DNA of 64,000 bases from an uncultured Candidatus Saccharibacteria bacterium (GTDB taxonomy: Bacteria; Patescibacteriota; Minisyncoccia; UBA6257; 2-01-FULL-56-20): assembly GCA_964365185.1 (NCBI GenBank), contig CAYIOP010000002.1:66684-130683 (forward strand), in the 5' to 3' direction. Below, in pieces: positions 6,871 to 46,650 of this stretch. Under the pieces are notes generated by a model that searched no databases, was not told the DNA's origin, and saw only the letters and a list, made by a program, of their open reading frames with translations. The position numbers and the translations under genes were made by a program. The number at the start of each line of letters is the position of its first letter. Position 1 is the first letter of the stretch.

Positions 6871-6944
6871 TTTTAACCATTTAAATCCAACTAGTAATGA
6901 AGTTATCTTGACCCGACCTCTTTAAATTGTATACTAACTTCATA

Positions 6945-8759: not shown

Positions 8760-9698
8760 ATGGGGAAAAGCGCTCTCGTTTTTTCTTCCAGTGACGCCTA
8801 CGCCCTCCTTCTTGGGGTTGCTTTATGTTCAATTTTTGAAAATCGAAAAAGCTACCACCCTTTTGATGTTTTTGTCATTGACGGAGGAATATCAAGCCGC
8901 AACCAACAAAGGTTAAATGTACTTGAAAAAAGATATGGCTTTACTATCACCTATCTTGTTCCCGACAAACACTTCTTTGAAAATCTACTGGCTACCGAAT
9001 TGCCTCAAGCGGGGTATTATCTGCCAGTCGAAGTTTATTATCGTCTAGCCATTGGGCGTATTCTTCCTAAGGAATACAGTCGAGCACTCTACCTGGACTG
9101 CGATATCGTTGTAAAGGGCGATCTGGCCGAACTGCTTAATTTTGATTTAGAAGATAAAGTTTTGGGGGCCGTAGCCGATTGCTTTCAGGATTTAAGGGAG
9201 AAGCATTTAAAACGGCTCTGTCAAAATGTCGGTCTTACTGAAATACCAAAAAAGCTCGTGTACTTTAACTCCGGCATTCTACTTGTCGATCTAAATCTTT
9301 GGAGAAAAAAGGAAATTGAAACCAAGCTTTTTTCGTTTATCAGCAAGAATTCTCACAAACTCTGGGCAGCTGATCAAGACGCTTTAAACATTGTCTTACT
9401 CTATGATTTTAGACAGCTTCCAGATAAATATAATTTTATTGCCGAACAAGCTTCTGGTTATCAGGAATCTAATCCTTTCATCATTCATTTTGCCGGCGGA
9501 TCAAAACCCTGGTATTTTTTCTCAGCTCTGCCATATCAATCAGAATATCTTTATTACGCGAGCAAAACCCCGTGGAAAAATAGAAAATATAGAAAGCCCA
9601 TGGACATCTTTTTTGCCAAGAAATATCATATCTACCAGTTGATGTGGGGAGTATGGAGTGTTTATAAAAAAATAAAAAAATCTTTAGCCAAAATATGA
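8760..9698 (+). CDS. glycosyltransferase family 8 (LPS alpha-1,3-galactosyl/glucosyltransferase-like)
   Basis: YLDCDIVVKGDLAEL (DxD motif), NSGILLVDLNLWRK and HFAGGSKPW are typical GT8 motifs. The TGA stop overlaps the next ATG (ATGA). Confidence 0.7.
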   Translation: MGKSALVFSSSDAYALLLGVALCSIFENRKSYHPFDVFVIDGGISSRNQQRLNVLEKRYGFTITYLVPDKHFFENLLATELPQAGYYLPVEVYYRLAIGRILPKEYSRALYLDCDIVVKGDLAELLNFDLEDKVLGAVADCFQDLREKHLKRLCQNVGLTEIPKKLVYFNSGILLVDLNLWRKKEIETKLFSFISKNSHKLWAADQDALNIVLLYDFRQLPDKYNFIAEQASGYQESNPFIIHFAGGSKPWYFFSALPYQSEYLYYASKTPWKNRKYRKPMDIFFAKKYHIYQLMWGVWSVYKKIKKSLAKI

Positions 9699-10597
9699 AA
9701 ATTATTATCACCGGCGGCACCGGTTTTGTGGGTTCCAACTTAACTCTAGACCTTATTAAAAAAGGTCACACGGTTTTTATAACCGGCCGCGAAGCCGCCG
9801 AAGAACTTCAAAGTCCTCTCATCACTTATCTTGGTCCGGATTTTATTAATTTGTCTTGGGAAAAAATCGGGCCGATTGACGTTGTTTTCCACGAGGCCGC
9901 CTGTAACGACACTACTCTTCTGGACAAAGAAGAGATGTTTAAAGTAAATTTTGATTGGTCGCGACAGTTGTTTAAAGAAGCCCAAAACGCCGGCGTCAAA
10001 AAAATTATCTACGCCTCCTCAACCGCGGTCTATGGCAACACCCCGCCTCCTTTTAAAGAATCCGGTCCCTTTAAACCTTTAAATCCTTACGCCGAGTCCA
10101 AAAAACTCCTCGATGAATTTGCTGAAAAATTTATTAAGGAACATCCCGAGATGATTGTTGTCGGCCTTCGGTATTGCAATGTTTACGGCCCCGGAGAAGG
10201 CAAAAAAGGCAAGCGATCCACGCTTATCTATCAATTAGCTCGAATCATGCAAAAAGAGAATCCAAAAATTTTTAAAGATGGCGAGCAAAAAAGAGATTAT
10301 ATTTATATCAAAGACGTAGTTAGGGCCAATCTTTTATCTATGAACGCCACCGAGAGCGGCATTTATAACTGCGGCTTTGGCCAGGCCGTAAGTTTTAACG
10401 ACCTTATTAAAATCTTAAACGAGGTTTTGGGTTTGAATCGCAAACCCGAATATATCGATAATCCTTATATTGACCGCTATCAAAGTTTCACCGAGTGCGA
10501 TATGTCGCTTGCTAGCGAAAAACTGGGATTTATTCCCGAGTTTGATATTAAAAAAGGCATCCGCGACTATTTTGAAAGCGGCTTTTTAATCAATTAA
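9695..10597 (+). CDS. hldD: ADP-L-glycero-D-manno-heptose 6-epimerase
   Basis: Collinear similarity to E. coli HldD across three blocks: VFHEAACNDTT...IIYASSTAVYG, LRYCNVYGPGEGKKG and YIDNPYIDRYQSFTECD. Confidence 0.75.
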   Translation: MKIIITGGTGFVGSNLTLDLIKKGHTVFITGREAAEELQSPLITYLGPDFINLSWEKIGPIDVVFHEAACNDTTLLDKEEMFKVNFDWSRQLFKEAQNAGVKKIIYASSTAVYGNTPPPFKESGPFKPLNPYAESKKLLDEFAEKFIKEHPEMIVVGLRYCNVYGPGEGKKGKRSTLIYQLARIMQKENPKIFKDGEQKRDYIYIKDVVRANLLSMNATESGIYNCGFGQAVSFNDLIKILNEVLGLNRKPEYIDNPYIDRYQSFTECDMSLASEKLGFIPEFDIKKGIRDYFESGFLIN

Positions 10598-10613
10598 TTT
10601 TTTTGTCTATTCC

Positions 10614-11096
10614 TTAGAGATTTCTAATCTTCGCAATAACTTCTGTTGTTGACTTGCCTTTTGTAAGCGGCACTCTAACTAGTTTCGCGCCAATTTCTTT
10701 TAAGGTTGCTCGTTCGACAATTTGACTGGTTTTTCTATCCGCTCCTTTTACGTGAATGCTGGGTTTTATTAATTTCAGCCATTTCTCCGGCGTCCTATCT
10801 TTGAATATAAAAACATAATCCACCGCTCTTAAAGCCGCCACCACTTCCGCGCGTTCCGCTTGAGATACAATTGGCCGGCCCCTGCCTTTATTTTCCCGAA
10901 CCGAACTATCCGAGTTAACTCCCACAATTAAAACATCGCCGAAGCTTCCGGCTTTTTCTAAGTTTCTAACATGACCGATGTGTAAAATGTCAAAGCAGCC
11001 ATTGGTCGTTACTATTTTCTTGCCGGCTCGGCGCTTTCTTCTCGCTATCTTAGCGACCTCAGCCAAAGTTTTTATTTTTGATTTTGCGGCTTCCAT
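10614..11096 (-). CDS. hldC: D-beta-D-heptose 1-phosphate adenylyltransferase (stand-alone HldE domain II)
   Basis: KKIVTTNGCFDILHIGHVRNLEKA cytidylyltransferase HxGH motif and ...IHVKGAD end as in RfaE domain II. 160 aa. Confidence 0.7.
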   Translation of the reverse strand: MEAAKSKIKTLAEVAKIARRKRRAGKKIVTTNGCFDILHIGHVRNLEKAGSFGDVLIVGVNSDSSVRENKGRGRPIVSQAERAEVVAALRAVDYVFIFKDRTPEKWLKLIKPSIHVKGADRKTSQIVERATLKEIGAKLVRVPLTKGKSTTEVIAKIRNL

Positions 11097-11146
11097 AATT
11101 CCTTTTTTTGACTTAAGCTATTATATGTTAATTCAAGTCAAGGTTC

Positions 11147-11731
11147 ATGACTAGACCCGATAACTCACAGCTTATTTTAAATGCCTTTAAACGACACCTC
11201 GAAACAGTTAGTCGTTCCGAGGCCACGGTTTTAAATGAGGTCTCAAAAGCTTTCGCGATTCTTGAAGAGATTGTTAAAAATCGCCGCGTTCTTTTTATCT
11301 GTGGCAATGGTGGTTCGGCCGCGCAAAGCCAACACTTTGCTGCTGAATGGGTCTGTCGCTATAAAAAAGAAAGGCCAGCCCTTAAAGCCATTGCCCTAAC
11401 CACCGACACCTCGGCCCTAACCGCCATCGGCAATGACTATGGTTTTGAAAATATCTTTGCCCGCCAAGTTGAGGCCCTAGCCTCTAAAGACGACTGCCTG
11501 GTTGTTATTTCAACCAGCGGCCGGTCGCCTAATATCTTAAAAGCCATTGATAAAGCCAAAACCATTGGGTTAAAAACCATTGCTTTAAGCGGCCAAAAAG
11601 GCGCGGCGCTTAAAAATCTGGTTGATGTCGCTATCTTAGTTCCATCCGATGAGACCGCCCGCATCCAAGAAGTTCACGATTTAATTCTACATGCTTGGTG
11701 CGAGGCGATTGATGAAAATTTCACCTCTTAA
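11147..11731 (+). CDS. gmhA: D-sedoheptulose 7-phosphate isomerase
   Basis: LFICGNGGSAAQSQHFAAEW is the canonical GmhA SIS motif. 194 aa. Confidence 0.8.
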   Translation: MTRPDNSQLILNAFKRHLETVSRSEATVLNEVSKAFAILEEIVKNRRVLFICGNGGSAAQSQHFAAEWVCRYKKERPALKAIALTTDTSALTAIGNDYGFENIFARQVEALASKDDCLVVISTSGRSPNILKAIDKAKTIGLKTIALSGQKGAALKNLVDVAILVPSDETARIQEVHDLILHAWCEAIDENFTS

Positions 11732-11740
11732 TTTTTATTT

Positions 11741-12709
11741 ATGGATATTTTAAAAACCATCAAGGAGTTTAATCAGAAGAAAATTCTAGTGGTCGGCGAC
11801 ATTATGTTAGACCATTATTTAAAAGGCGGTGTTTCTCGCATTTCGCCCGAAGCGCCTGTGCCAGTATTGGCGAAATCTTCCGAAAGTTATGCCTTGGGCG
11901 GCGCCGGCAATGTGGCCGCTAATATCGCTTCTTTAAAAGGCCGGGTTACTCTTTTAGGCGTTACCGGCGATGATCCCGAGTCAGGAATTATCAAAAAAAT
12001 TTGCGCTGGCCTAAAAATAACTCCGCGGCTTATCATTGAAAAGAAAAGGCCCACCACCCTTAAAACCCGGGTTGTCTCCGGCCGCCATCAACTTTTAAGA
12101 ATCGACACCGAAACCACTGCCCGCCCCAAAACCCAAACCGAAAATGAACTTATTAAAACCATTAACCGCTTACCCAATTTTAATATTATTGTAATTTCCG
12201 ATTATGCCAAAGGTTGCTTAACTAAGAAAGTTTTTACGGCGCTTAAAAATCGTTTTAAAAATGTTCAAATTATCGCGGATATAAAACCATCTCAAGCCAA
12301 TCTCTACTCAAATGTTTTCCTAATTACACCCAATCTTAAAGAAACTTACGACTTAACCGGTTTAAACGCCCAAGAACCTAAGTCAGCTGAAAAATCCGCT
12401 AAACTTTTATCCGACCGTTTTTCTTCTTCGGTTATTATCACTCGCGGAGAGCACGGGCTCACGCTCTACGAAAAAGAAACAAAAAAAATCACCCATATCC
12501 CGTCGCATACTATCCATATTTTTGACGTAACCGGCGCCGGAGATACTGTTGTTGCCGTTTTAGCTTTGATGGTTGCTTTAGGCGAAGACCTTAAAATTTC
12601 TGCCCGAGTGGCCAATTTGGCCGCTGGTCTGGTTGTGAGCGAAGAGGGAACCGCCACTCTCTCTCCGCAAGTTTTAATCGCTGCTCTTAAAAATCGCCGT
12701 GTTTTCTAA
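11741..12709 (+). CDS. hldA: D-beta-D-heptose 7-phosphate kinase (stand-alone HldE domain I)
   Basis: ILVVGDIMLDHYLKGGVSRISPEAPVPVL is the RfaE domain I ribokinase-like signature. C-terminal DVTGAGD motif. Confidence 0.8.
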   Translation: MDILKTIKEFNQKKILVVGDIMLDHYLKGGVSRISPEAPVPVLAKSSESYALGGAGNVAANIASLKGRVTLLGVTGDDPESGIIKKICAGLKITPRLIIEKKRPTTLKTRVVSGRHQLLRIDTETTARPKTQTENELIKTINRLPNFNIIVISDYAKGCLTKKVFTALKNRFKNVQIIADIKPSQANLYSNVFLITPNLKETYDLTGLNAQEPKSAEKSAKLLSDRFSSSVIITRGEHGLTLYEKETKKITHIPSHTIHIFDVTGAGDTVVAVLALMVALGEDLKISARVANLAAGLVVSEEGTATLSPQVLIAALKNRRVF

Positions 12710-15023
12710 TTTCCTTAAACATTTCATCAAAGTTAGATTTGTCGGTTTTCTCCGGTCCCTCTTTTTATTTTTAATCAACCCACGGACTAATCAAAAAAAT
12801 TGGGAGGAGCGCCTGCTTCTTATCAATCTTCAAGGCATCGGCGATCTTGTTGTTTTTACTTCGGTCTTGAAACATTATCACCAAGCTTTCCCTAGTAAAA
12901 AAATCTATCTTCTTATTAAAGAAGACACTGGTCTTAAAAAAGCGTTATCCGCAGTCGGGCAATGCGAAGTTATCACTCTTAACTATCGTCGCTTCACCAC
13001 CGACCCTTTTTATGGTTTTTCTCTAATTTCAAAATTGAAGCAGATTGGTTTTGAAACTGTTTTAAATCATGATTTCAGCGCCGCCGAAATTATGGGTAAA
13101 TTTATCGCCGTCGGGCTTGGCGCTAAACAAGTTATCGGTTATGAGGGCATGGCTCTTGAATTTATCGCGCCCTTTAATCTTCAGCAACGTCTCAATATCC
13201 GCTACGCAATCAATCATCTTTTTCCCAGATTCACCGATCTTATCCCGCGCATTGATTATCGGTACGATCTTTTAGAGCGACTCCCAGGAGCAATTAGTCA
13301 TTACCTTGCTATCTTTGAGCACGCCTCTAAGCGAAAAGAAAATGACTATTCAACTTTTTTGCCATCTCCTTCGTCGCTTGAAAATCTCAATCTTCGTCTG
13401 CCTCCAAAACCCTACGCGGTTTTTAATCTTTCTGCTTCTAATACCTACAAACGTTGGCCTATAGAAAATTTCGCGGGCCTAGCCCAAAGCCTAAAAGCCA
13501 AAAACTTTGAAATTGTTTTAATTGGTCTAACTGAAAGCCAAAATCTGGGCCAGGAGTTTAAAAATAATTTCTCCGGAGAAGTTTTTAATTTAATCGGGCA
13601 AACGTCTTTAAACGATTTGATTTATGTTATTAGTCATTCATCCCTGGTTGTCTCAAACGACACTTCTTCCGTTCACATTGCCGTGGCGCTAAAAAAATCA
13701 TCTCTTTGCTTAACGGGTGGCGGGCAGTTTGGGATGTTTGCCGATTACGGCTATCAAAATTTAAACCATTGGGTTTATAAAAAAACCAATTGCTTCTGCG
13801 ATAATTGGCGCTGCGGAAAAAATCTTGAAAATCAGTCCGCGCCTTGTGTCTCCGCCATCACTCTTGATGAAGCCGAGCAAAAATTACAATCACTTCTCTC
13901 TGAAATTCAAAATCCCAATCCCGATTCTTTTTTGTTTAAAACCAGTTTTGCCCCGCCGCCGGTTAAAAGCGGAAAATTTAAAATTATTTTTTCAGGGATT
14001 CAATTCGAGAATTATAACTTTGGACGAAAAAGTTTTGAATATAGCAACTTTCTTTTGACCCTAAGAGCTATGCCCAATTTGGAAGCGTTGTTCTATCCTT
14101 TTGATTTTATTCTTCAAATGGGAAAAAAGAAATTCAACGAACGCCTGCTCGATTTAGTTCGGCGCGAAAAACCCGACCTTTTTTTCGCGTTTATGTATAC
14201 CGATGAACTGGATGTAAAAACGCTCTCTGAAATTAAAAAATTAACTAAGAGTGTTGCTTGGTTTGCCGACGATCACTGGCGACTTGATAACTATTCCCGT
14301 CTCTACGCTCCTTATTTTACTAAAGCGATTACAACCTGGAGTAAAGGTATCGAAAATTATAAACGCTACGGCATTGAGAACATCCTTCGCTCGCAGTGGG
14401 CGTGCAATCACTTTGTTTGGCATCCCGCCGCAGTTTCTAATCAGGATATCGATGTTAGTTTTGTGGGGCAGTATAATCCGGCTCGCGGGGAAATTATAAG
14501 AAAACTTCGGTCTTTAGGCGTTAATGTTTGGGTTCGTGGTTGGGGTTGGCCCGAAGGCCGCCTCCAGGGTGGCGACATGGTTCAGGCCTTTAGTCAGAGC
14601 AAAATTAACCTCAATTTTAACACGCCGCCTAGCCGCTTAACGCCTAAATTATTAGCCCGCCTTTTCTTTAGGCGTTCTCTAAATAGAATTCGTCCGAGCT
14701 GGCGCTTCGCCAGTAATTTTCGCTCCTGGCTTAATATTTCTATCCCTCAAATCAAAGCCCGCCCTTTTGAAGTTGTCGGCTGCCAGGCCTTTCTTATATC
14801 AGCTTTTGCCGATGATGTTCACAGTTACTATGAAGATAAGAAAGAAATTGTCTATTACCGCGATATTCCCGACTTGGTTCAAAAAATCCAGTTCTATCTT
14901 AAAAATCCTGAACTTAGAAAAAAAATCGCTGAAGACGGATACAGGCGCACTCTCAAAGAACATACCTATACAAAAAGATTCACTGAAATTTTTGAAAAAG
15001 TCGGATTTAAATACCACGCCTAA
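12699..15023 (+). CDS. two-domain glycosyltransferase: N-terminal GT9 heptosyltransferase fused to C-terminal CgeB-like (DUF3880/GT1-like) domain
   Basis: N-terminal ERLLLINLQGIGDLVVFTSVLKHY and LVVSNDTSSVHIAVAL are GT9 hallmarks. The C-terminal region (VWVRGWGWPEGRLQGGDMVQAFSQSKINLNFN ... KEHTYTKRFTEIF) resembles CgeB-family glycosyltransferases. The only in-frame start is GTG at 12699, overlapping the hldA stop. Confidence 0.6.
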   Translation: MFSNFLKHFIKVRFVGFLRSLFLFLINPRTNQKNWEERLLLINLQGIGDLVVFTSVLKHYHQAFPSKKIYLLIKEDTGLKKALSAVGQCEVITLNYRRFTTDPFYGFSLISKLKQIGFETVLNHDFSAAEIMGKFIAVGLGAKQVIGYEGMALEFIAPFNLQQRLNIRYAINHLFPRFTDLIPRIDYRYDLLERLPGAISHYLAIFEHASKRKENDYSTFLPSPSSLENLNLRLPPKPYAVFNLSASNTYKRWPIENFAGLAQSLKAKNFEIVLIGLTESQNLGQEFKNNFSGEVFNLIGQTSLNDLIYVISHSSLVVSNDTSSVHIAVALKKSSLCLTGGGQFGMFADYGYQNLNHWVYKKTNCFCDNWRCGKNLENQSAPCVSAITLDEAEQKLQSLLSEIQNPNPDSFLFKTSFAPPPVKSGKFKIIFSGIQFENYNFGRKSFEYSNFLLTLRAMPNLEALFYPFDFILQMGKKKFNERLLDLVRREKPDLFFAFMYTDELDVKTLSEIKKLTKSVAWFADDHWRLDNYSRLYAPYFTKAITTWSKGIENYKRYGIENILRSQWACNHFVWHPAAVSNQDIDVSFVGQYNPARGEIIRKLRSLGVNVWVRGWGWPEGRLQGGDMVQAFSQSKINLNFNTPPSRLTPKLLARLFFRRSLNRIRPSWRFASNFRSWLNISIPQIKARPFEVVGCQAFLISAFADDVHSYYEDKKEIVYYRDIPDLVQKIQFYLKNPELRKKIAEDGYRRTLKEHTYTKRFTEIFEKVGFKYHA

Positions 15024-16031: not shown

Positions 16032-16041
16032 TATTCTTCTA

Positions 16042-17019: not shown

Positions 17020-17064
17020 CGCTTTTGTTATTCTTCGAAATTCTTTATTCTTAATTCTAACCGT

Positions 17065-18879
17065 ATGAATATTTTAGGTATATCGGCTTTTTATCACGAC
17101 AGCGCCGCTTGTTTAGTCAAGGACGGCAAAATTTTAGCCGCTGCTCAGGAAGAAAGGTTTACCAGAAAAAAACATGATGCTCGGTTTCCTAAACATGCTG
17201 TCGCATATTGTTTGGAATCTCAAAGTTTAGATATAAAAAATATCGATTATGTCGCCTTTTATGAAAAACCATTCCTAAAATTTGAACGTCTACTCGAGAC
17301 CTATCTCGCTTTTGCTCCCAAGGGATTTACATCCTTTATTCAAGCCATGCCAATTTGGTTGAAGGAAAAGCTTTGGATGAAATCCTATCTATCTAAGGAG
17401 TTGGGTTTTAATGGAAAAATTATTTTTCCCGAACATCATCAATCTCATGCCGCCTCCGCTTTCTATCCCTCACCTTTTAAACAAGCCGCGTTTCTTACCG
17501 CTGATGGAGTTGGCGAGTGGTCAACGACTAGTTACGGTGTTGGTTCCGGAAGTAAACTCAAAATGATCGCCGACATCAAATTTCCTCATTCTTTAGGTAT
17601 GCTCTATTCCGCTTTTACTTACTATACGGGTTTCAAAGTTAATTCCGGCGAATATAAAGTTATGGGGCTCGCTCCTTATGGTCGCCCCGAATACAAAAAT
17701 AGAATTTTTGAAAATTTAATTGATCTTAAAGAAGATGGTTCTTTCAGTATGAATATGGAATATTTTAACTACTGCACCGGGCTTACTATGACTAGTAAAA
17801 AATTTGACCAACTTTTCGGCGGCCCTCCTCGGAAGCCCGAATCACCCCTTACTCAAAAAGAAATGGACCTTGCCCGCTCCATCCAAGAAGTTGCCGAAGA
17901 AGTTATGTTAAGGATGGCTCGCCATATTCGTAAAGAAACAGGAGAAAAGTATCTTTGTTTAGCCGGCGGGGTGGCTCTAAATTGTGTTGCCAACGGGAAA
18001 ATTCTGGATGAAAAGATCTTCGATGATATTTGGATTCAGCCCGCCTCTGGTGATGCCGGTGGCGCCTTAGGCGCTGCTCTTGTTGTTTGGCACGAATATT
18101 TGCAAAAACCTAAACTAACCCCTGAAGGTCAAGATTTAATGGGGGGTGCCTATCTTGGTCCAAGTTTTAGCCCAAAAGACATCGAAATTTATCTTCAGGA
18201 AAATAAAATTCCTTACACCGAGTACCTAACCGATCAATTAATCAATAAGGTCTCCGATTTATTGGGCAACGAAAAGGTTATCGGCTGGTTTCAGGGGAAA
18301 ATGGAATTTGGTCCAAGGGCCTTGGGTAATCGATCAATTATTGGGGATGCCCGCTCTCCAAAAATGCAGGAAGTCATGAATTTAAAAATAAAATTCCGGG
18401 AAAGTTTCCGGCCTTTTGCTCCTTCAGTCATAATTGAAAAGGTCTCTGAGTGGTTTGAAACTAACCACGAAAGTCCTTACATGCTTTTAGTTGCTAACGT
18501 CAAAAAAGAAAAAAGAAAATCTGCTCCTGGCGAAGAAAAGCTTTTTGGCATCGAGCGCCTCAAAGTGCTCCGGTCAGAAATTCCAGCTGTTACCCACGTT
18601 GATTTTTCAGCTCGGCTCCAAACAGTTCACAAAGAAACCAATCCGCTTTACCACCAACTCATCGCGGCTTTTGATAAAAAATTTAACTGCCCGGTTATTG
18701 TTAACACTTCTTTCAATGTGAGAGGCGAGCCGATCGTCTGTACCCCCGAGGACGCCTACCGCTGTTTTATGAGAACCAATATCGATTACCTCGTTTTAGG
18801 TAATTTTCTAATCGATAAAAAAGATCAACCCAAAAACAATCAGAACGACGATTGGAAAAAAGAATTTGAGCTTGATTAA
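17065..18879 (+). CDS. NodU/CmcH/TobZ-family carbamoyltransferase
   Basis: MNILGISAFYHDSAACLVKDGKILAAAQEERFTRKKHDARFPKHA is the diagnostic N-terminal (Kae1/YgjD-like) signature of carbamoyl-phosphate-dependent O-carbamoyltransferases. 604 aa, the usual length. Confidence 0.8.
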   Translation: MNILGISAFYHDSAACLVKDGKILAAAQEERFTRKKHDARFPKHAVAYCLESQSLDIKNIDYVAFYEKPFLKFERLLETYLAFAPKGFTSFIQAMPIWLKEKLWMKSYLSKELGFNGKIIFPEHHQSHAASAFYPSPFKQAAFLTADGVGEWSTTSYGVGSGSKLKMIADIKFPHSLGMLYSAFTYYTGFKVNSGEYKVMGLAPYGRPEYKNRIFENLIDLKEDGSFSMNMEYFNYCTGLTMTSKKFDQLFGGPPRKPESPLTQKEMDLARSIQEVAEEVMLRMARHIRKETGEKYLCLAGGVALNCVANGKILDEKIFDDIWIQPASGDAGGALGAALVVWHEYLQKPKLTPEGQDLMGGAYLGPSFSPKDIEIYLQENKIPYTEYLTDQLINKVSDLLGNEKVIGWFQGKMEFGPRALGNRSIIGDARSPKMQEVMNLKIKFRESFRPFAPSVIIEKVSEWFETNHESPYMLLVANVKKEKRKSAPGEEKLFGIERLKVLRSEIPAVTHVDFSARLQTVHKETNPLYHQLIAAFDKKFNCPVIVNTSFNVRGEPIVCTPEDAYRCFMRTNIDYLVLGNFLIDKKDQPKNNQNDDWKKEFELD

Positions 18880-19297
18880 AATGCTGTCTAAAGAAATAAA
18901 AAATATTAGTAGCACCAAGAAAGACCTCCGCAATTTCAGTTTAGTTATCGGCGGAGTTTTAGTTGTCCTTAGTTTATGGTGGCTAACTCACCAGCGATCA
19001 AGCTGGTTATGGCCTGCCCTTTTAGGATTACTAATTATTGCCGCCGGCTTTATTGTTCCATCTTTACTAAAACCCCTTCAGAAGACCTGGATGATTCTAG
19101 CGGTTCTAATGGGTTGGATTATGACTAAGGTTATACTTTTTATTGCCTTCTTTATGATTTTTATGCCCATCAACTTGATATTAAAAATTCTAAAAAAGAA
19201 AATTTTCGATTTCGGCATAAAATCAGATCAAAAAAGTTACTGGATTCCTCGCGACCAGCCAGAATTTTCAAAGGCCAGTCTCGAGAAACAATTTTAA
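18866..19297 (+). CDS. SxtJ-like small membrane protein
   Basis: 143 aa with 3 transmembrane segments, immediately downstream of and overlapping the carbamoyltransferase. The carbamoyltransferase, SxtJ, DUF5989 trio is a recurrent arrangement. Confidence 0.4.
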   Translation: MSLIKMLSKEIKNISSTKKDLRNFSLVIGGVLVVLSLWWLTHQRSSWLWPALLGLLIIAAGFIVPSLLKPLQKTWMILAVLMGWIMTKVILFIAFFMIFMPINLILKILKKKIFDFGIKSDQKSYWIPRDQPEFSKASLEKQF

Positions 19298-19299
19298 CA

Positions 19300-20529
19300 A
19301 TGAAAGAACTAAGCTTTAAAAAAAAGATTTTCTTCACAATTGTTATCATCTTATTCCTGCTTATCTTTGCCGAAATTATTGCCAGAGTAATTTTAAACAA
19401 CAACGGTTCAATTAGTATCAACGAGCGGAAGAATAAATTCGAACCCTATCAAAATAAGGCCTGGGCCGAGCAATATTTTAAAGACGAAGCTTTATGTGCC
19501 AAACAGAGAGATAATTTCAAAGCCACTACTAGTAGTTTTGCTCGGTATATTATTTACGACGTTGGCTATCCCGGTTGTGAGTCAGAAACTATTAATTACT
19601 TTGGCGGGAACAGAAGAAAAACCTGGAATCCCGAATACAATCCCGAAAAAACAAAGCCTAAAATTTATCACGTCGGATTTTTTGGCGGATCAACCACTCA
19701 GGGCGCGGGCGTCCCGGATGCTTTAACCATCCCCTCTTTTTTTTCTAAAATAGTGAATAAATCAACCAGTACTATTATTTATAATGTTGAAAATTTTGGT
19801 GTTTCTGGTTACACCTACACCCAGGCCATGGTCAAACTCATATTTCTTCTGAAAGAAGGAACCAAGTTTGATTATGTGATTTTCTACAACGGAGCCAACG
19901 ATATTGATAATGCTTATGAAGCTGGATTGGTTGGGGCAATTTATGGAGAGAAAACAGTTGAAAATCGTCTCTATGGAGGCCTTATCGGTCAAATCAAAGA
20001 AGTATTTAAAGACCAGATAGGTTCCTGTGGATTATGCCGTTTTGTTATCACCTTTTCCAGAAACACCCCGTTTCTTAAAGATCAACTAACTCCACTGTTG
20101 GTCAAGATTAGAAAGGTCTTACTTTTCAAGGAAGGAGCCAAGACGAGCGAGGAATCGCTTGACCATTTCGCTCAAGGTATCGCTGATAACTACATTCAAT
20201 CTCATAAATTTTTAGATCACCTTTCAAACGCTTACGGCTTCAAGTACCTCGATTTTTGGCAACCCTCGCTTCAGTATGAAGACGGTCCGGTCGGAGGAGA
20301 AAAAATATATTGGAATATTGACAATCGTCTCACTGATGAAAAACTCAAAGCACTTTACCGTCTAACTCTAGAAGATGTAATCTCCGCCAACCTTAATAAT
20401 TTTTATGACTTATCTCAATCTCTTGCCGGCAGAAAAAAAGCTTATTATCTCGATGCCGTCCATATTAGTGATGAAGGTAATGAAGCTGTCGCTAAAAAAA
20501 TCTCTGATATATTTGAAAAAAGGTTCTAG
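19300..20529 (+). CDS. SGNH/GDSL-type hydrolase with N-terminal membrane anchor
   Basis: Block I YHVGFFGGSTTQG, block III FYNGANDI and block V DAVHISDEG match the SGNH hydrolase catalytic motifs. An N-terminal transmembrane segment is present. Confidence 0.55.
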   Translation: MKELSFKKKIFFTIVIILFLLIFAEIIARVILNNNGSISINERKNKFEPYQNKAWAEQYFKDEALCAKQRDNFKATTSSFARYIIYDVGYPGCESETINYFGGNRRKTWNPEYNPEKTKPKIYHVGFFGGSTTQGAGVPDALTIPSFFSKIVNKSTSTIIYNVENFGVSGYTYTQAMVKLIFLLKEGTKFDYVIFYNGANDIDNAYEAGLVGAIYGEKTVENRLYGGLIGQIKEVFKDQIGSCGLCRFVITFSRNTPFLKDQLTPLLVKIRKVLLFKEGAKTSEESLDHFAQGIADNYIQSHKFLDHLSNAYGFKYLDFWQPSLQYEDGPVGGEKIYWNIDNRLTDEKLKALYRLTLEDVISANLNNFYDLSQSLAGRKKAYYLDAVHISDEGNEAVAKKISDIFEKRF

Positions 20530-20548
20530 GTATTGTAAGATTTTTTAA

Positions 20549-20707
20549 ATGAATAAACTCGGCATTCTTAAAGAATTTTGGGATTTTTTAAAGTCTCGTC
20601 GAAAATGGTGGATTTTCATTGTTGCCTTTTTCTTGATCTTGATAGCAAGTTTTGTTTTCCTCTCTCAAGGTTCTGTTGTTGCGCCTTTCATCTACACCAT
20701 CTTTTAA
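20549..20707 (+). CDS. DUF5989-family small membrane protein (not in the supplied ORF track, 52 aa)
   Basis: Translation MNKLGILKEFWDFLKSRRKWWIFIVAFFLILIASFVFLSQGSVVAPFIYTIF matches the DUF5989 consensus (EFW.FLK.RKKWW, APFIY.LF) found beside carbamoyltransferase/SxtJ genes. The listed ORF 20578-20787 is an out-of-frame overlap. Confidence 0.6.
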   Translation: MNKLGILKEFWDFLKSRRKWWIFIVAFFLILIASFVFLSQGSVVAPFIYTIF

Positions 20708-20713
20708 CTGAGC

Positions 20714-21817
20714 ATGAAAAAAGTACTCATCACCGGAGGGGCCGGATTCATCGGCAGCCATACCGCCGATGCCCTAAAAAAACTTAGGTATAAAATAAAA
20801 ATCCTCGACAATCTCGCCCCACCCACCCATAAGACACCAAAATGGCCCGCCTATGTTTTAGGCAAGGGCTATGAACTTATTAAGGGCGATGTCTGCGATC
20901 GCCGGGTTGTATCGAGAGCCCTCCAAGGAGTTGATTTTATCTTTCATTTCGCGGCCTACCAAGACCAAAGGAATGACTTCTCTCATTTTTTTAAAATTAA
21001 TACCTTAAGTTCCGCCTTGCTCTATGAGCTTATCACTGAGAAAAAATTCCCGGTTAAAAAAATAATTCTGGCTAGCACTCAGTTTGTTTATGGCGATGGC
21101 AAATATTTATGTTCCCGCTCTAAAAAAGAATTTTTTCCCGAACCCCGCGCTTTGTCGGCACTAAAAAAAGGGGACTGGTCTATTAAATGTCCCAACGGCC
21201 ACCCTGCCACTTTTTTGAAATTTGAAGAAGATCAAAAACTCACCCCCACCAATTCCTACGGTCTCTCCAAGCAAGCCATGGAAAATTTGGCTCTTCGCTT
21301 TGGCAAAACCCATGGCCTTTCCACTACCATCCTTCGTTATTCTATAGTCCAGGGTCCACGACAATCTCCGCATAATCTTTATTCCGGCGCTATGCGGATT
21401 TTTGTAAGCCAAGCCCTGGCCAGCGTTCCACTGACTGTTTATGAAGATGGCCTAGAAACCAGAGATTTTGTAAATATTGAAGATGTCGTCCGAGCCAATC
21501 TCCTTACCCTTAAAAACCCAAAAACAAATTTTCAGATATTGAATGTTGGCGGTGGTCGCGGCTATCGAGTGATTGATTTTGCCAAACTTATTAAAAAAAT
21601 TAGCCGCTCCTCTTCGTCGATTCTAGTCGGCTCTTTCCGTCGTACTGATACTCGCCACGCCGTCTCTGATATCTCTAAAATAAAAAAATTGGGCTGGTCT
21701 CCCCGACGTGGAATTGATTATTCAATTAAAACTTATCTTGAGTGGTTTACTGATAATGGTTTCGATAAAAAACTTCATTCTCAAGACCTCGTTAAACTCC
21801 AAGAAGGCATAAAATAA
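20714..21817 (+). CDS. NAD-dependent epimerase/dehydratase-family protein with Cys-containing insertion
   Basis: MKKVLITGGAGFIGSH Rossmann motif and SDR fold. An insertion ...KYLCSRSKKEFF...WSIKCPNGHP... separates the YGDG and YxxxK regions. Confidence 0.55.
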   Translation: MKKVLITGGAGFIGSHTADALKKLRYKIKILDNLAPPTHKTPKWPAYVLGKGYELIKGDVCDRRVVSRALQGVDFIFHFAAYQDQRNDFSHFFKINTLSSALLYELITEKKFPVKKIILASTQFVYGDGKYLCSRSKKEFFPEPRALSALKKGDWSIKCPNGHPATFLKFEEDQKLTPTNSYGLSKQAMENLALRFGKTHGLSTTILRYSIVQGPRQSPHNLYSGAMRIFVSQALASVPLTVYEDGLETRDFVNIEDVVRANLLTLKNPKTNFQILNVGGGRGYRVIDFAKLIKKISRSSSSILVGSFRRTDTRHAVSDISKIKKLGWSPRRGIDYSIKTYLEWFTDNGFDKKLHSQDLVKLQEGIK

Positions 21818-21867
21818 TAAGCTAATTTTATTGACTTATTGGTCGGCTTGTTTTAATCTACCTAAAC

Positions 21868-22890
21868 ATGATTGTTGTTCGCGCTCCCTTAAGAATTAGC
21901 TTTGTTGGCGGCGGCACCGACCTCCCCGATTTTTATCATCAGCGTCCTGGCCGCGTTATTTCAACCGCCATCGACAAGTTTGTCTATGTGGTAGTCAATC
22001 GTACCCCCATGATCGATAAAGTCGTGGCGCGTTATTCTATTACTGAATCAGTCAGCCACCCCAGCGAACTCGAGCACACCCGCATCAAAGCTGCTCTAAC
22101 GGATTTGGGCATTCACAAAAATATTGAAATTTCTTCTTTCGCCACCATGCCCTCTAAAACTGGTCTTGGTTCCTCCTCCAGTTTTTCAGTGGCTTTAATC
22201 AAGGCCCTAAACGCTTTTCAAGGTAAAAAAATTGATGCTCGCGAAGCCGCTGAAGCTGCTAGTCGTCTTGAGATTGAATTGGTAGGTGAGCCTATTGGCA
22301 AACAAGATCAATACGCTGCTTCCTTAGGCGGTTTTAATGTGATTCAGTTTAATCCCGATGAATCAGTTGATGTCTCCCCGGTTTTAATTGATTATAAAAA
22401 ACGTTTGGCTTTAGAGAGTAGCATCCTTTTGTTTTTTACGGGCATCACTCGCTCTACTTCTTCGGTTCTAACCGAGCAAAAAGCCAATATCGACAGTAAG
22501 TTTGGGACTCTCTCTGAGATGGCGGATTCGGTTCCGGAATTTAGCAACCTTGTTCTTGAAGGCGATATTCCGGCTATGGGTGCCATGCTTCATCAGGGTT
22601 GGTTAAAGAAAAAAAGCTTAGCGTCTAATTTATCTAATTCTTTAATTGATGATCTTTATAATTCTGGAATTTCCTCTGGCGCTTATGGCGGCAAGATTTT
22701 GGGCGCTGGCGGCGGTGGCTGTATTCTATTTTTAAGCCCTCAGGATAAAAAAGATTCTATTCGCGAAGCAGTCAAAACCGTGGCCGAAAAAAATAATCTT
22801 GTCGGTTTTCGCGAGATTCCAGTTGAATTTGTTCAAAGTGGCGCCGAAGTTTTATATAACGGTGATCATTTCCATTCTCATTTTTCGTAA
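21868..22890 (+). CDS. hddA: D-glycero-alpha-D-manno-heptose 7-phosphate kinase (GHMP kinase)
   Basis: MIVVRAPLRISFVGGGTDLPDFY N-terminus is characteristic of HddA-type GHMP kinases, plus the GLGSSSS ATP-binding motif. Confidence 0.65.
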   Translation: MIVVRAPLRISFVGGGTDLPDFYHQRPGRVISTAIDKFVYVVVNRTPMIDKVVARYSITESVSHPSELEHTRIKAALTDLGIHKNIEISSFATMPSKTGLGSSSSFSVALIKALNAFQGKKIDAREAAEAASRLEIELVGEPIGKQDQYAASLGGFNVIQFNPDESVDVSPVLIDYKKRLALESSILLFFTGITRSTSSVLTEQKANIDSKFGTLSEMADSVPEFSNLVLEGDIPAMGAMLHQGWLKKKSLASNLSNSLIDDLYNSGISSGAYGGKILGAGGGGCILFLSPQDKKDSIREAVKTVAEKNNLVGFREIPVEFVQSGAEVLYNGDHFHSHFS

Positions 22891-22894
22891 AATT

Positions 22895-23500
22895 ATGAAA
22901 ACTCACATCGAAGATTTTAAAAACAAAGTTGATCTGGCTTTAAAAGCCCTGCCCACCGAAGAAATTGCCAAGGCCTTGAATATTCTGGAAGCTGTTTATG
23001 AACGGGATGGCCGCATCTATGTTTTTGGCAACGGCGGCTCTTTGGCCATCGCCACCCATTGGGTGAGCGATTTTAATAAAACCGTTTTCAGCCATCATTT
23101 AGATAAGCATCATCGTCGCTTTCAAGCTATTCGCGTGCCGACCACCGAGGAAGAATTAACCGCTTGGGCCAACGATGCTGGTTTTGATATGGTTTTTGCC
23201 GGCCCCCTTGAAAACTACTTGCAAGATCCGGATGTCGTAATTGCCATCTCTAGCTCCGGCGCTTCCCCGAATGTTATTAAAGCTGTCGAGCTTGCCCGAA
23301 GTCGCAAAGTTCCTGTTATTGGGATTTCTGGTTTTGGCTCTGATAATCAGTTAAATCAACTCGCCACCGTCAAGATTCATGTCCCGGCTGAAAAAGGGGA
23401 ATATGAAATTGTTGAAGGCGTTCACGGGATTATCCTGCATCTCATGACTAAATATTTCAAAGATTATTTCGATCACATAGTAGCCAAGTCAGAAAACTAA
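22895..23500 (+). CDS. gmhA: SIS-domain phosphoheptose isomerase (second GmhA paralog)
   Basis: YVFGNGGSLAIATHWVSDF SIS motif. ATG at 22895 is chosen because the listed ORF start at 22799 would overlap hddA. Confidence 0.6.
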   Translation: MKTHIEDFKNKVDLALKALPTEEIAKALNILEAVYERDGRIYVFGNGGSLAIATHWVSDFNKTVFSHHLDKHHRRFQAIRVPTTEEELTAWANDAGFDMVFAGPLENYLQDPDVVIAISSSGASPNVIKAVELARSRKVPVIGISGFGSDNQLNQLATVKIHVPAEKGEYEIVEGVHGIILHLMTKYFKDYFDHIVAKSEN

Positions 23501-24051
23501 TGAAAGCAGTTTTCTTAGATCGTGACGGGACTATTAATAAGGAAGTTAACCTCCTAAGAAATCTAAAACAGCTGAAAATCCTTCCCAAAGCCGCCGAAGC
23601 CATCAGGAAAATCAACCAACTTGGTTTTCTGGTGGTTGTGATTACTAATCAAGCTGTGGTGGCCCGCGGCTGGCTAACTGAAAAAGGCGTGGATGAAATT
23701 CACGCTGTTTTAATAAAGCGCCTGGCAAAAAAAGGCGCCAAAATTGATGCTATCTATTACTGCCCGCACCATCCCGAAGCTAATTTTAAAAAATATCGCG
23801 TTAAATGTCGCTGCCGCAAACCGAATCTTGGTATGATTTTAAAAGCCGCCAAAAAGTTCAAAATTAATTTTAAAAAAAGTTTTATGGTCGGCGACCACAC
23901 CCGCGACATTTTAACCGGCCATCGCGCTAGCCTCAAAACCATTTTAGTTAAAACTGGCTACGCTGGCAAAGATGGCTACCACGACATAAAGCCCGATTTC
24001 ACAGCCAAGAATCTTTTTGAAGCTGTAAAAATTATCAAACGTAATTCTTAA
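23500..24051 (+). CDS. gmhB: D-glycero-D-manno-heptose 1,7-bisphosphate phosphatase (HAD IIIA)
   Basis: VFLDRDGTIN HAD motif I and the GmhB zinc-binding C-x-H-x...C-x-C motif (YYCPHHPEANFKKYRVKCRCRKPNLGMI). Confidence 0.8.
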   Translation: MKAVFLDRDGTINKEVNLLRNLKQLKILPKAAEAIRKINQLGFLVVVITNQAVVARGWLTEKGVDEIHAVLIKRLAKKGAKIDAIYYCPHHPEANFKKYRVKCRCRKPNLGMILKAAKKFKINFKKSFMVGDHTRDILTGHRASLKTILVKTGYAGKDGYHDIKPDFTAKNLFEAVKIIKRNS

Positions 24052-24111
24052 TTCCTATTTCGTAATTCATAATTCGTCACTCATGATTCATAATTCATCA
24101 CTCATTAATCA
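24042..24111. repeat. heptamer-periodic array (TAATTCN units x about 10) spanning the gmhB stop and hddC start
   Basis: taattct taattcc tatttcg taattca taattcg tcactca tgattca taattca tcactca ttaatca. Confidence 0.6.
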
Positions 24112-24859
24112 AGCCATCCTTCTCTCCGCCGGCCTAGGCACTCGTCTCCGTGATATTACCAAAGGCGAAATTCCAAAAGTTATGGTCCCGCTTCTTGGTA
24201 AGCCGCTTTTGGAGTGGCACCTTGAGGCTTTCAAAAAATACGGCGTGAGTGATTTTTTCATCAATCTTCATTATCTCCCCGAAGTTATTAAAAATTATTT
24301 TGGCGACGGCTCTAAATGGGGAGTTAAAATTCAATACAATTTCGAACCAGAAATCATGGGTACCGCGGGCGGTATCAAAGGTTTCTCCGCTGAAGGCGGA
24401 TCCGCCTCTGGCGGAGAAAACCAGCTCGCTGATAATTTTTTTGTCATCTACGCCGACACCTTTTATCAAATCAATTATAATCGCATTGCCGACCTTTATT
24501 TTTCACTTGAAAACCCGATTGGTTTAGGCACTGTGAGAATCACCGATCACCCCGAGGATTCTGATTTGGCTATCGTCGGAGAAAACAACGAAGTCAAAGA
24601 ATTTCTAATTAAACCGCATAAAAAACTCCCCGAAAAAAGTTTTTATGGCACTTCTGCTCCCTATATCTTTTCCAAAAAAATTCTGGAATATATTCCAGAA
24701 AATAAATATTACGAAATTGATCATAATCTTGTGCCGGATCTCTTAGCTCGTGGCTTTAAATATTACGCTTATAAATTAAAAAGCGATGAATTCCGAAAAG
24801 ACATTGGCACTGCCGATCGCTACCATTTTGTTGAAAATTATCTGAAAAATTTAAAATAA
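24083..24859 (+). CDS. hddC: D-glycero-alpha-D-manno-heptose 1-phosphate guanylyltransferase-like sugar nucleotidyltransferase
   Basis: AILLSAGLGTRLRDIT nucleotidyltransferase motif and GTAGGI. Position after gmhB as in GDP-heptose clusters. It carries the inserted EGGSASGGEN peptide. Confidence 0.6.
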   Translation: MIHNSSLINQAILLSAGLGTRLRDITKGEIPKVMVPLLGKPLLEWHLEAFKKYGVSDFFINLHYLPEVIKNYFGDGSKWGVKIQYNFEPEIMGTAGGIKGFSAEGGSASGGENQLADNFFVIYADTFYQINYNRIADLYFSLENPIGLGTVRITDHPEDSDLAIVGENNEVKEFLIKPHKKLPEKSFYGTSAPYIFSKKILEYIPENKYYEIDHNLVPDLLARGFKYYAYKLKSDEFRKDIGTADRYHFVENYLKNLK

Positions 24860-25669: not shown

Positions 25670-26129
25670 TTAGATATACCGCTCCCAGCGCCACCACAAA
25701 CCCAAGCGCCTTCCGAATAGAAAAATCTGCTCCCAGCATTGTTATCCCACAGAGCTCATTCACCGCGATCTGAGTCAGAACGATTACTAAAATCACGGTA
25801 GAAGCTTTTTCTTGCTGAGCAGCGCGTAAGTTCCCCAAAAGCTTGATAGTGCCCAGTCCGTTTAGCATCCCCGCAATTATGGCGATTGGATAAACAGTCA
25901 ATGGTATTAATCCCAGGCCCACTCCGATTCCTAGAGCCAGTGTGGCTGCAAGAAAAGTGTTAAATATCACCCCACTCATAACTCCTGTAAAGTAAGCCGC
26001 AAGGATGATGGCGGTAGTCGGCAAAGCCAGCATAAGCGACTGGTTAATGTCAGGTAAGTTGCTCTTCCTCATAATCAGAGGCCAGAGTCCAAAGCAAGTT
26101 CCAGCCAAAAAGCATCCTAATAAGTTCAT
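25656..26129 (-). CDS. small polytopic membrane protein (4-5 TM, EamA-half-like)
   Basis: 157 aa, almost entirely hydrophobic helices. Confidence 0.35.
   Translation of the reverse strand: MNLLGCFLAGTCFGLWPLIMRKSNLPDINQSLMLALPTTAIILAAYFTGVMSGVIFNTFLAATLALGIGVGLGLIPLTVYPIAIIAGMLNGLGTIKLLGNLRAAQQEKASTVILVIVLTQIAVNELCGITMLGADFSIRKALGFVVALGAVYLIATK

Positions 26130-44982: not shown

Positions 44983-46650
<1,668 letters not shown>

Follow-up and report, generated by a model that had tools for sequence, protein, structure and literature searches.

Campylobacter jejuni NCTC 11168 makes nucleotide-activated heptose by two routes, with two copies of the sedoheptulose-7-phosphate isomerase GmhA and a single phosphatase, GmhB (Cj1152), serving both (PMC10680097). 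Its GmhB gene sits in the ADP-heptose/lipooligosaccharide (LOS) cluster and also serves the capsule route, and short-chain dehydrogenase/reductase (SDR) enzymes modify the GDP-heptose (PMC10680097). In Burkholderia, a route through the GHMP heptokinase WcbL runs parallel to a split pair of enzymes, HldA and HldC (PMC4691232). A PfkB kinase yields the beta-1-phosphate and then ADP-beta-heptose for an inverting glycosyltransferase of family 9 (GT9), and a GHMP kinase yields the alpha-1-phosphate and then an alpha-linked nucleoside diphosphate (NDP)-heptose (PMC4691232, PMC10680097). Here we analyzed a 64-kb stretch of contig CAYIOP010000002.1 (the window), in which gene sets of both types lie side by side in one core region (8760–24859). 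We consider it likely that this locus builds a surface glycan that is linked to a lipid carrier and contains heptose, using two donors with opposite anomeric configurations.

Parts of such a system have been noticed elsewhere. Stand-alone heptose nucleotidyltransferases and kinases are described by Tang, Chen and colleagues as widespread beyond lipopolysaccharide (LPS) producers (PMC11573728). ADP-heptose genes were already reported in freshwater Paceibacteria (PMC9166423), and "LPS-type" genes in the candidate phyla radiation (CPR) were remarked on in metagenome-assembled genomes from soda lakes (PMC6146748).

Gene identities were taken from Pfam and NCBIfam profiles, with the curated NCBIfam equivalog cut-offs as a strict threshold, and PDB sequence searches were added. 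The core region holds 17 genes that overlap (by 1–14 nt) or are separated by very short gaps, among them 16 open reading frames (ORFs) of at least 140 aa, and the tight, co-oriented packing is broken by a sole minus-strand gene, HldC. The only intergenic-looking gap (20530–20713) is mostly filled by a 52-aa SxtK-like gene. An initial annotation of the stretch had named two GmhA copies, a split HldE, HldD, HddA, GmhB, an HddC-like enzyme and GT9, GT8 and GT2 transferases, and each of these was recovered where it had been placed. That gene list was correct but incomplete, leaving unmentioned the ornithine-carbamoyltransferase (OTCase)-like, O-carbamoyltransferase, SxtJ-like, SxtK-like, GDSL and SDR genes within the same coordinates.

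All five enzyme activities of the ADP-heptose route are encoded at the family level, and for every ORF the expected family was the top-scoring one (PDB searches for this route covered HldA, HldC, HldD and GmhB). HldA (11741–12709, +), a PfkB kinase corresponding to domain I of HldE, scored 329 bits against a cut-off of 345 on TIGR02198; its GG and DVTGAGD motifs are intact, and it gave a single strong PDB match, HldA 4e84 (1.3e-50). The stand-alone heptose-1-phosphate adenylyltransferase HldC (10614–11096, −), equivalent to HldE domain II, reached 177 vs. 181.5 on TIGR02199, and B. pseudomallei HldC 5x9q was its best PDB match (2.7e-26), with the HxGH motif (HIGH) aligned. For the HldD-like ADP-glycero-manno-heptose 6-epimerase (9695–10597, +) the score was 249 vs. 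275 on TIGR02197, the best PDB matches were the ADP-heptose 6-epimerases 3sxp (8e-50) and 1eq2 (3e-42), and the GxxGxxG and YxxxK motifs are intact. HldD orthologues, 57–64% identical, occupy the same position in L003, L004, L005 and L086 (L-numbers denote related contigs or loci, mapped by tblastn with the window proteins). GmhA1 (11147–11731, +), a sedoheptulose-7-phosphate isomerase of the canonical type, scored 208 vs. 276 on NF010546 and 192 vs. 209 on TIGR00441, and retains H61, E65, Q172 and H180 in an alignment to an E. coli GmhA reference.

The nucleotide specificity of HldC-type enzymes has been tied to a C-terminal motif: (F/L)XXGRSTT (STTR5) marks heptose nucleotidyltransferases that also accept CTP and UTP (PMC11573728). 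The Arg at the fifth motif position is not present in the window HldC, which carries a Lys there (LTKGKSTT, with KSTT present). At the same position the CPR orthologues have Lys (L004, L005 and L086), His (L003), Arg (L087) or Tyr (L088).

The second gene set centers on a GHMP kinase (21868–22890, +) that resembles HddA, the 1-kinase of the alpha-anomer type for the 7-phosphate of D-glycero-D-manno-heptose. It contains the GHMP motif PSKTGLGSSSS, and its four best PDB matches are all heptose-7-phosphate kinases (among them WcbL 4usm, 8e-46; 3k85, 8.5e-40; and 4n3o, 3e-31), the next family being fucokinase at 2e-17. Judged by sequence, the kinase is clearly of the HddA/WcbL type. A divergent isomerase, GmhA2, follows; since its orthologues start at M33, the gene is probably 22895–23500 (+) and not the mechanical ORF 22799–23500 with its TTG start at 22799. 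The 13 best of 15 PDB matches of GmhA2 are phosphoheptose isomerases (top, 1tk9, 6.7e-19) and DiaA accounts for the remaining two; H61, H180 and the phosphate-binding Ser-loop are retained, with conservative changes of E65 to D and Q172 to E.

GmhB, the heptose-1,7-bisphosphate 7-phosphatase (23500–24051, +), scored 166 vs. 178 on NF006506 and 109 vs. 250 on the alpha-type domain model. Its PDB match is E. coli GmhB 3l8e (5.5e-32), and the translation shows the DxDGT motif and the Zn site (CxH...CxCRKP). As the initial annotation had it, this is the sole GmhB in the window. GmhA2 and GmhB are placed between the HddA-like kinase and a sugar-1-phosphate nucleotidyltransferase of the NTP_transferase family (HddC-like, 24083–24859, +; PF00483, 89 bits), and this arrangement recurs in many loci. 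Given the PDB matches of the kinase and GmhA2 and the GmhB within the gene set, a heptose substrate for the second route is well supported at the level of sequence. Position, after HddA-GmhA2(-GmhB) in loci with enough sequence, would link the HddC-like protein to heptose-1-phosphate, and GDP is assumed by analogy; in some HddA-only variants the HddC-like gene precedes GmhB or sits apart.

Directly upstream of the kinase lies an extended SDR of the GalE/UDP-glucuronic acid (UDP-GlcA) 4-epimerase type with a ∼40-aa insertion (20714–21817, +; Pfam and NCBIfam). Its PDB matches are 4zrm (4e-36), 6wjb and 6zl6, and orthologues 58–81% identical stand directly upstream of HddA in many loci, so placed that the enzyme may modify the second NDP-heptose. 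Two other identities for it, a GDP-heptose 4,6-dehydratase and a second HldD, were rejected: the PDB matches are GalE/UDP-GlcA 4-epimerase-like, and HldD-type scores are low.

Between the two gene sets lies a 774-aa protein (12699–15023, +) that combines a GT9 domain (PF01075, 81 bits vs. 22) with a Glyco_trans_1_2 domain (PF13524). An AlphaFold2 model built with 33 homologues (mean pLDDT 91.5, pTM 0.86) has an N-terminal helix, a GT9 fold at residues ∼35–405 and a GT4-like, Glyco_trans_1_2 GT-B module at residues ∼425–774. Foldseek against the PDB placed WaaF 1psw, the Veillonella GT9 protein 3tov and WaaC (6dfe, 2h1h) on top, with target-normalized TM scores of 0.72–0.76 and E-values reaching 1e-13, followed by the retaining GT4 enzymes MshA, BshA, PimB' and GlgM and, lower, by TibC-type protein heptosyltransferases (TM 0.53–0.57, ranks 31–48). 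Against the equivalogs for LPS heptosyltransferases I, II and III, the GT9 domain stayed far below the cut-offs (63, 63 and 52 bits vs. 185, 135 and 170). The protein is a member of family GT9 and not a WaaC, WaaF or WaaQ orthologue. At least 24 full-length fusions of this kind were found, every named one from Patescibacteria; in L086, L087, L088 and L120 two neighboring genes encode the halves separately.

Near the end of the GT9 module, three Cys residues (C365, C372 and C383) as well as D368 and W358 do not vary among the 33 homologues (CFxDNWxC...PSPC). The cluster may form a metal site, presumably akin to the Cys-rich iron site of TibC-type heptosyltransferases.

Two further transferases belong to the core region. 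An inverting GT-A enzyme of family GT2 (15024–16031, +; PF00535, 140 bits) has orthologues 45–63% identical at the same position between the two heptose gene sets. A retaining GT8 enzyme (8760–9698, +; PF01501, 153 bits) had no orthologue in the six related loci compared.

Related loci were drawn from the contigs of six CPR HldA homologues and from 39 metagenome loci obtained in a scan with the HddA-like protein. A contig scan with HldA alone found no relative, and one with a CPR-only HldA alignment gave, among the matches listed, only Gram-negative HldA/HldE loci (37–42% identity). The order HldD-HldC(−)-(GmhA1)-HldA-GT9/GT4-like-GT2-SDR-HddA-GmhA2-(GmhB)-HddC is shared by the window and at least eight further CPR contigs (L003, L004, L005, L086, L094, L096, L106 and L120), not every element being present in each; L105 is an overlapping, identical fragment of L106. 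Across these loci HldA is 40–51% and HddA 68–82% identical to the window protein, the downstream order GT2b-Wzx-cytidylyltransferase-like-SDR-phosphoglycosyltransferase is likewise conserved, and several relatives carry GroEL on the same contig as the locus. The recurring gene order argues that the dual arrangement is a conserved, selected architecture in this clade of Parcubacteria. The combination had been called unusual beforehand, which holds for bacteria in general but not within the lineage, where the same order returns.

Loci that depart from this order tell which genes travel together. The GT9 domain and HldA co-occur in all 11 GT9 loci with enough upstream sequence, and L095 and L097, which have the HddA set only and the GT4-like half as a separate gene, contain no HldA, HldC, HldD or GT9 in the 10 kb upstream. 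L115 has the GT4-like half only, with ∼2.8 kb upstream, too short to judge the absence of HldA, and the L087 locus is partial. That GT9 and HldA always occur together is our main argument for the GT9 domain as the user of ADP-heptose. An earlier suggestion that ADP-heptose could be made here for another, non-structural role finds no support, given that HldA always stands beside a GT9 gene. GmhA2 and HddC enclose GmhB in the window, in over a dozen metagenome loci and in L086, where an intact ORF had been split by the gene caller.

The distribution of the two modules also bears on whether the donors meet in one molecule. They might instead feed two products, the GT9 domain, for example, O-heptosylating a surface protein in the manner of autotransporter heptosyltransferases and the alpha-linked donor feeding a Wzx-dependent polymer. 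Since some loci have HldA only and others HddA only, the modules are able to work independently; TibC-type protein heptosyltransferases are among the structural matches of the fusion, and the invariant C365, C372 and C383 presumably resemble the Cys-rich metal site of the TibC family. However, WaaF, WaaC and 3tov match the model far better than TibC does, and the GT9 domain is fused to a second transferase in the at least 24 proteins mentioned above, within one co-oriented gene string, which argues for consecutive steps on one acceptor. We regard separate products as quite improbable.

Several observations weigh against a single glycan built from two heptose donors. None of the heptose enzymes attains its curated NCBIfam equivalog cut-off; because the cut-offs were missed, some narrowly and some clearly, our assignments are family-level and contextual, not curated equivalog calls. 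For the ADP-route proteins the narrow shortfall is as expected for a deep-branching lineage. In the second set, the kinase reached 141 bits vs. 600 on NF049969, its top NCBIfam family, and GmhA2 scored 89 vs. 276. The HddC-like protein scored 74 vs. 300 on the HddC equivalog, behind ManC-like (94 vs. 440), archaeal GlmU-like and MurU models, and in the PDB the UTP-glucose-1-phosphate uridylyltransferase 8x7s (1e-25) was ahead of HddC 5xhw (1e-14). GmhB is missing from L003, L004, L005, L094, L096 and L106, several dual loci having none within 10 kb, which leaves the phosphatase step without a uniform explanation. In L088 the ADP set, the GT9 gene and the GT4-like gene occur with no HddA within 10 kb; the GT4-like half is therefore not strictly tied to the second route. 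A literature search returned no sugar composition or enzyme assay of any CPR bacterium. Finally, the absence of LPS genes reported below applies to the 64 kb of the window.

The scores of the second set, with the two residue changes in GmhA2, would suit a locus with only one true heptose donor, in which the second set activates another sugar, or a heptose on UDP, CDP or dTDP. We consider this unlikely. The four heptose-7-phosphate kinases that match the second kinase best are far ahead of fucokinase, phosphoheptose isomerases fill the 13 best places among the PDB matches of GmhA2, and the second set of the window includes a bona fide GmhB, as do those of L086 and over a dozen metagenome loci. 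The earlier claim of two complete pathways, ADP- and GDP-linked, thus stands in part: a beta/ADP-type and an alpha-type route are encoded, but "GDP" comes from context and not from a profile match. The profile comparison proposed at that time gave the same division, the best family of the kinase being the HddA-type NF049969 with heptokinases as its PDB matches, whereas the HddC profile was not the best match of the nucleotidyltransferase.

Small repeats were found in and around genes of this region. A near-perfect palindrome, TTTCTCCGCTGAAGGCGGATCCGCCTCTGGCGGAGAAA, of 38 nt (copies of 35–39 nt) lies in-frame in unrelated genes: in the window at 24382–24419 (HddC-like gene) and 16723–16763 (OTCase-like gene), in L004 at 17452–17487 and in L122 at 4655–4681. 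The two window copies, against zero expected, add the 10-aa peptide EGGSASGGEN to the HddC-like and OTCase-like proteins, and its residues are absent from four HddC-like orthologues; in the OTCase-like gene the in-frame insertion occupies 16735–16763. The L004 copy, at the 3′ end of HddA, alters the C-terminus of the protein, and the L122 copy is inside an SDR gene in opposite orientation. The hairpin folds to −25 kcal/mol (z = −5.2). The palindrome behaves like a small mobile palindromic repeat tolerated in coding sequence, and we take it to resemble the in-frame palindromic elements of Rickettsia, but in a much shorter form.

At 24043–24100, three head-to-tail 14-nt units (∼ATTCGTAATTCATA) cover the GmhB stop and the spacer between GmhB and HddC and reach into the start of the HddC-like gene, and a fourth, similar stretch lies at 31268–31297. 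The GT2 of the core region is ∼20 aa longer (335 aa) than its orthologues (312–315 aa) and contains an odd G/S/P-rich stretch, ESRSESGGSPSGTWRAGESH, encoded at 15403–15480. The corresponding DNA is GC-rich and hairpin-forming, with an inverted-repeat partner at 28323–28346, in the intergenic region upstream of a second GT2 gene (GT2b). This stretch may represent a second class of small inserted repeat.

The window is identical to contigs of a Hainich groundwater metagenome (0.1-µm filter). GroEL (44992–46650) is 76–87% identical to proteins named Colwellbacteria, Liptonbacteria, Parcubacteria, Paceibacterota and Wolfebacteria. The closest HldA homologues (45–54% identity) carry the names Ca. 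Liptonbacteria and Ca. Ryanbacteria and are stand-alone kinases, and all named homologues of the GT9 fusion are from Patescibacteria or Liptonbacteria, the latter lying within the Parcubacteria group of Patescibacteria. On the strength of GroEL and these locus genes we place the host in the Parcubacteria (CPR). Rfam and tRNA scans of the window gave one tRNA-Ser only, unrelated to the locus.

A GT9 enzyme with an ADP-L,D-heptose route is classically the mark of an LPS core, the GT9 profile matches are solely to LPS heptosyltransferase models, and a gene of the Wzy_C/O-antigen-ligase family is present; LPS-type genes in CPR genomes had, moreover, been remarked on (PMC6146748). The host could then be diderm, or anchor an LPS-like molecule, with ADP-L,D-heptose destined for a lipid A-Kdo (3-deoxy-D-manno-octulosonic acid) inner core and the locus an ordinary O-antigen/core cluster. 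We regard this as highly improbable. CPR cells, to which the contig belongs by GroEL and locus genes, are described as monoderm with an S-layer (PMC6146748). The GT9 domain is far below the cut-offs of the heptosyltransferase I/II/III equivalogs (52–63 bits vs. 135–185), and among named matches the GT9–GT4 fusion occurs solely in Patescibacteria. No lipid A, Kdo, Lpt or Bam families (Lpx, Kds, WaaA, Lpt, Bam) were found among the scanned ORFs of at least 100 aa, nearly all of those in the 64 kb. The prior description of the host as a small-genome bacterium is right, and these results are consistent with its being probably LPS-less.

The two-donor reading can be set out as a series of proposed steps. 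In the first route, GmhA1 would isomerize sedoheptulose-7-phosphate, the PfkB kinase HldA would form the beta-1,7-bisphosphate, GmhB would take off the 7-phosphate, HldC would add AMP and HldD would epimerize C6. In the second, GmhA2, HddA, the same GmhB and the HddC-like enzyme would give an alpha-linked NDP-D-glycero-D-manno-heptose, GDP being the nucleotide by analogy, and the adjacent 4-epimerase-like SDR may alter this product. One GmhB would thus serve both routes. The acceptor would be a polyprenyl diphosphate-linked oligosaccharide started by the phosphoglycosyltransferase. On it, the GT9 half of the 774-aa fusion is predicted to use ADP-L,D-heptose, and the GT4-like half and/or the conserved GT2 the alpha-linked donor; we infer this pairing of transferases with donors, and likewise the final acceptor. 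The glycan, methylated and O-carbamoylated, would be flipped by Wzx and then polymerized, or transferred to an anchor, by the Wzy_C protein.

The surroundings of the core region are consistent with this scheme, since 1–35.5 kb forms one glycan-assembly locus, further SDRs included, with the heptose genes in its middle. The marks of a Wzx/Wzy-type locus are all present: a phosphoglycosyltransferase, Wzx and a Wzy_C-family protein; no chain-length regulator was recognized in the locus. Synthesis would be initiated by a polyprenyl-phosphate glycosyl-1-phosphate transferase (34126–35463, −; PF02397, 179 bits; TIGR03025, 295.4 vs. 295.55). The flippase is a Wzx-type member of the MOP family (29215–30714, −; PF01943, 136 bits) that is conserved in related loci, and the second GT2 (GT2b, 28443–29270, +; PF00535, 119 bits) stands next to it, with orthologues 58–70% identical. 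The Wzy_C/O-antigen-ligase-family membrane protein (3206–4459, −; PF04932, 36 bits vs. 31.7) may act as polymerase, ligase or O-oligosaccharyltransferase. Together with the several glycosyltransferases around the core, these genes fit the heptose-rich surface glycoconjugate that the initial annotation had proposed.

Upstream of the core, an RmlA-like glucose-1-phosphate thymidylyltransferase (1252–2001, −; TIGR01207, 257 bits) and the dTDP-glucose 4,6-dehydratase RmlB (2008–3033, −; TIGR01181, 376 bits, above the cut-off of 365) supply a further donor sugar to the locus. A glucose-1-phosphate cytidylyltransferase-like protein (6927–7751, +; TIGR02623, 298.6 vs. 300.25) and a CDP-glucose 4,6-dehydratase-like SDR (7756–8757, +; TIGR02622, 207 vs. 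278) are encoded just before the GT8 gene. Three S-adenosylmethionine-dependent methyltransferases assigned by Pfam (4533–5249, 5274–6110 and 6133–6870, the last FkbM-type; all +) are probably for O-methylation of sugars, and FkbM-type methyltransferases recur in related loci.

A carbamoylation module lies inside the core region. The NodU/CmcH-family O-carbamoyltransferase (17065–18879, +; PF02543, 348 bits; PF16861, 251 bits) has orthologues 69% identical in L003 and L102, and is followed by an SxtJ-like membrane protein (18866–19297, +; PF19588, 28 bits vs. 24.4) and, beyond a GDSL/SGNH-like gene, by the 52-aa DUF5989/SxtK-like small membrane protein (20549–20704, +). The last was missing from the ORF list and was recovered by tblastn with the DUF5989 protein of L003 (PF19451; 67% identity over 52 aa, E = 1.7e-21). 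The pairing of carbamoyltransferase and SxtJ-like protein recurs in L003 and L102 without the OTCase, DUF5989 also being present in L003. That an SxtI/J/K-like trio occurs away from toxin clusters points to a general role of SxtJ and SxtK as partners of membrane-associated carbamoyltransferases. The OTCase-like protein (16042–17019, +; TIGR00658, 277.4 vs. 280.85), not found in the related loci compared and specific to this genome, may supply carbamoyl phosphate from citrulline. Its gene appears split in the sister contig L002; a frameshift or an element insertion was considered and rejected, the interruption being a scaffolding gap filled with N. The GDSL/SGNH-like protein (19300–20529, +; PF00657, 33.5 bits), with orthologues in L003 and L102, is possibly a glycan O-acyl esterase or transferase.

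Downstream of HddC, a HAD (beta-PGM-like) hydrolase (24920–25669, −), a 157-aa protein (25656–26129, −), a 304-aa protein (26279–27193, −) and an IMPase/FBPase-family phosphatase (27198–28064, −) are encoded (Pfam and NCBIfam). Orthologues of these genes follow HddC in L003, L005, L086, L096, L100 and L120, and those of the IMPase/FBPase and HAD genes are conserved even in loci without GmhB. Both enzymes are candidates, conjectured from context, for a non-orthologous heptose-1,7-bisphosphate 7-phosphatase.

A second protein of the cytidylyltransferase fold (169 aa, 30767–31276, +) scored 68.5 vs. 181.5 on TIGR02199 and matched ethanolamine-phosphate cytidylyltransferase (1.6e-13) and TagD (1.6e-9) in the PDB. 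With this score, and ethanolamine-phosphate and glycerol-3-phosphate cytidylyltransferases as best PDB matches, it was rejected as a second HldC. Its orthologues (55–63% identical) lie beside Wzx even in loci with the HddA set only. The protein hints at a CDP-alcohol or a phospho-substituent on the glycan.

A broader conjecture, which we hold to be doubtful, is that Parcubacteria have a lineage-wide, vertically inherited heptose-based envelope glycoconjugate, a counterpart of the LPS core or of teichoic acid without an outer membrane. Its backbone would be made by the bifunctional GT9–GT4 protein as a "heptan synthase" that alternates inverting transfer from ADP-L,D-heptose with retaining transfer from alpha-linked NDP-D,D-heptose and so needs both anomeric routes, and the IMPase/FBPase-like phosphatase would replace GmhB in relatives without it.

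Outside the glycan locus, two tandem paralogous gene pairs (39709–41585 and 48288–50477) have no Pfam family except PD40 repeats in one, and share conserved 5′ regions of 72–122 nt that encode N-terminal hydrophobic segments. Their products, probably secreted or located at the surface, could serve as glycan acceptors. In the 554-aa ORF at 50515–52179, the ThyX (Thy1) domain covers only residues 325–515, and the N-terminal ∼320 residues have no Pfam match.

To our knowledge, the cell surface of CPR/Patescibacteria is chemically almost uncharted, and it is this surface that meets their hosts. The locus predicts a glycan with L,D-heptose and D,D-heptose, methylated and carbamoylated, which is concrete, conserved and experimentally tractable. 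If true, a monoderm lineage lacking LPS would be added to those with GT9 and ADP-L,D-heptose chemistry, and the locus would show, as a natural case, the beta/ADP and alpha/NDP heptose routes joined in a single assembly line. Metabolites of the ADP-heptose type are described as innate immune agonists (PMC11573728), and abundant environmental and host-associated ultra-small bacteria able to make them would have some wider relevance. The enzymology is known, and the gain is incremental and not conceptual.

Compared with C. jejuni, the window is alike in having PfkB/HldE-type and GHMP/HddA-type routes in one organism, with two GmhA proteins and one GmhB; both routes with a single GmhB are not new in themselves, because they are documented there. 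In contrast, the C. jejuni routes lie in separate loci for separate molecules (LOS core and capsule) in a diderm host, whereas here both flank shared glycosyltransferases in one co-oriented CPR locus. The window GmhB belongs to the HddA gene set and not to the ADP-heptose set, and HldE is split into two genes. The window SDR is of the GalE/UDP-GlcA-epimerase type, with no GDP-heptose-modifying structure among its PDB matches.

In B. pseudomallei and B. cenocepacia the LPS core is served by a split HldA and HldC, and a 6-deoxy-heptan capsule by WcbL-WcbN-WcbM-GmhA. The kinase/adenylyltransferase split is shared, and the best solved-structure matches are from these systems (HldA 4e84, HldC 5x9q and WcbL 4usm). 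The Burkholderia HldC motif FEHDRSTT carries an Arg, linked to the use of ATP, CTP and UTP (PMC11573728), where the window has LTKGKSTT. Burkholderia loci are separate, and no gene of the GDP-heptose 4,6-dehydratase type was recognized in the window. With WaaC and WaaF, the N-terminal half of the fusion shares the GT-B fold of GT9, and its gene always adjoins ADP-heptose synthesis genes. However, sequence identity is 15–17%, scores are far below the LPS heptosyltransferase equivalog cut-offs, the window GT9 (like its relatives, fused or adjacent to a GT4-like transferase) has an N-terminal helix and the three-Cys cluster, and a Kdo-lipid A acceptor would be impossible if the host has no LPS.

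The HddA-type route, the GT9–GT4 fusion and the joint CPR locus are not described in the accessible text of PMC11573728 or of the Paceibacteria report. Nor did a full-text literature search on heptose in CPR, Parcubacteria or Patescibacteria turn up any mention of the fusion, of the second route or of the joint locus. The enzymes and pathways themselves are familiar, every component coming from a known enzyme family; what is new is the joint, conserved wiring of both routes in a CPR lineage, together with a lineage-specific two-module transferase.

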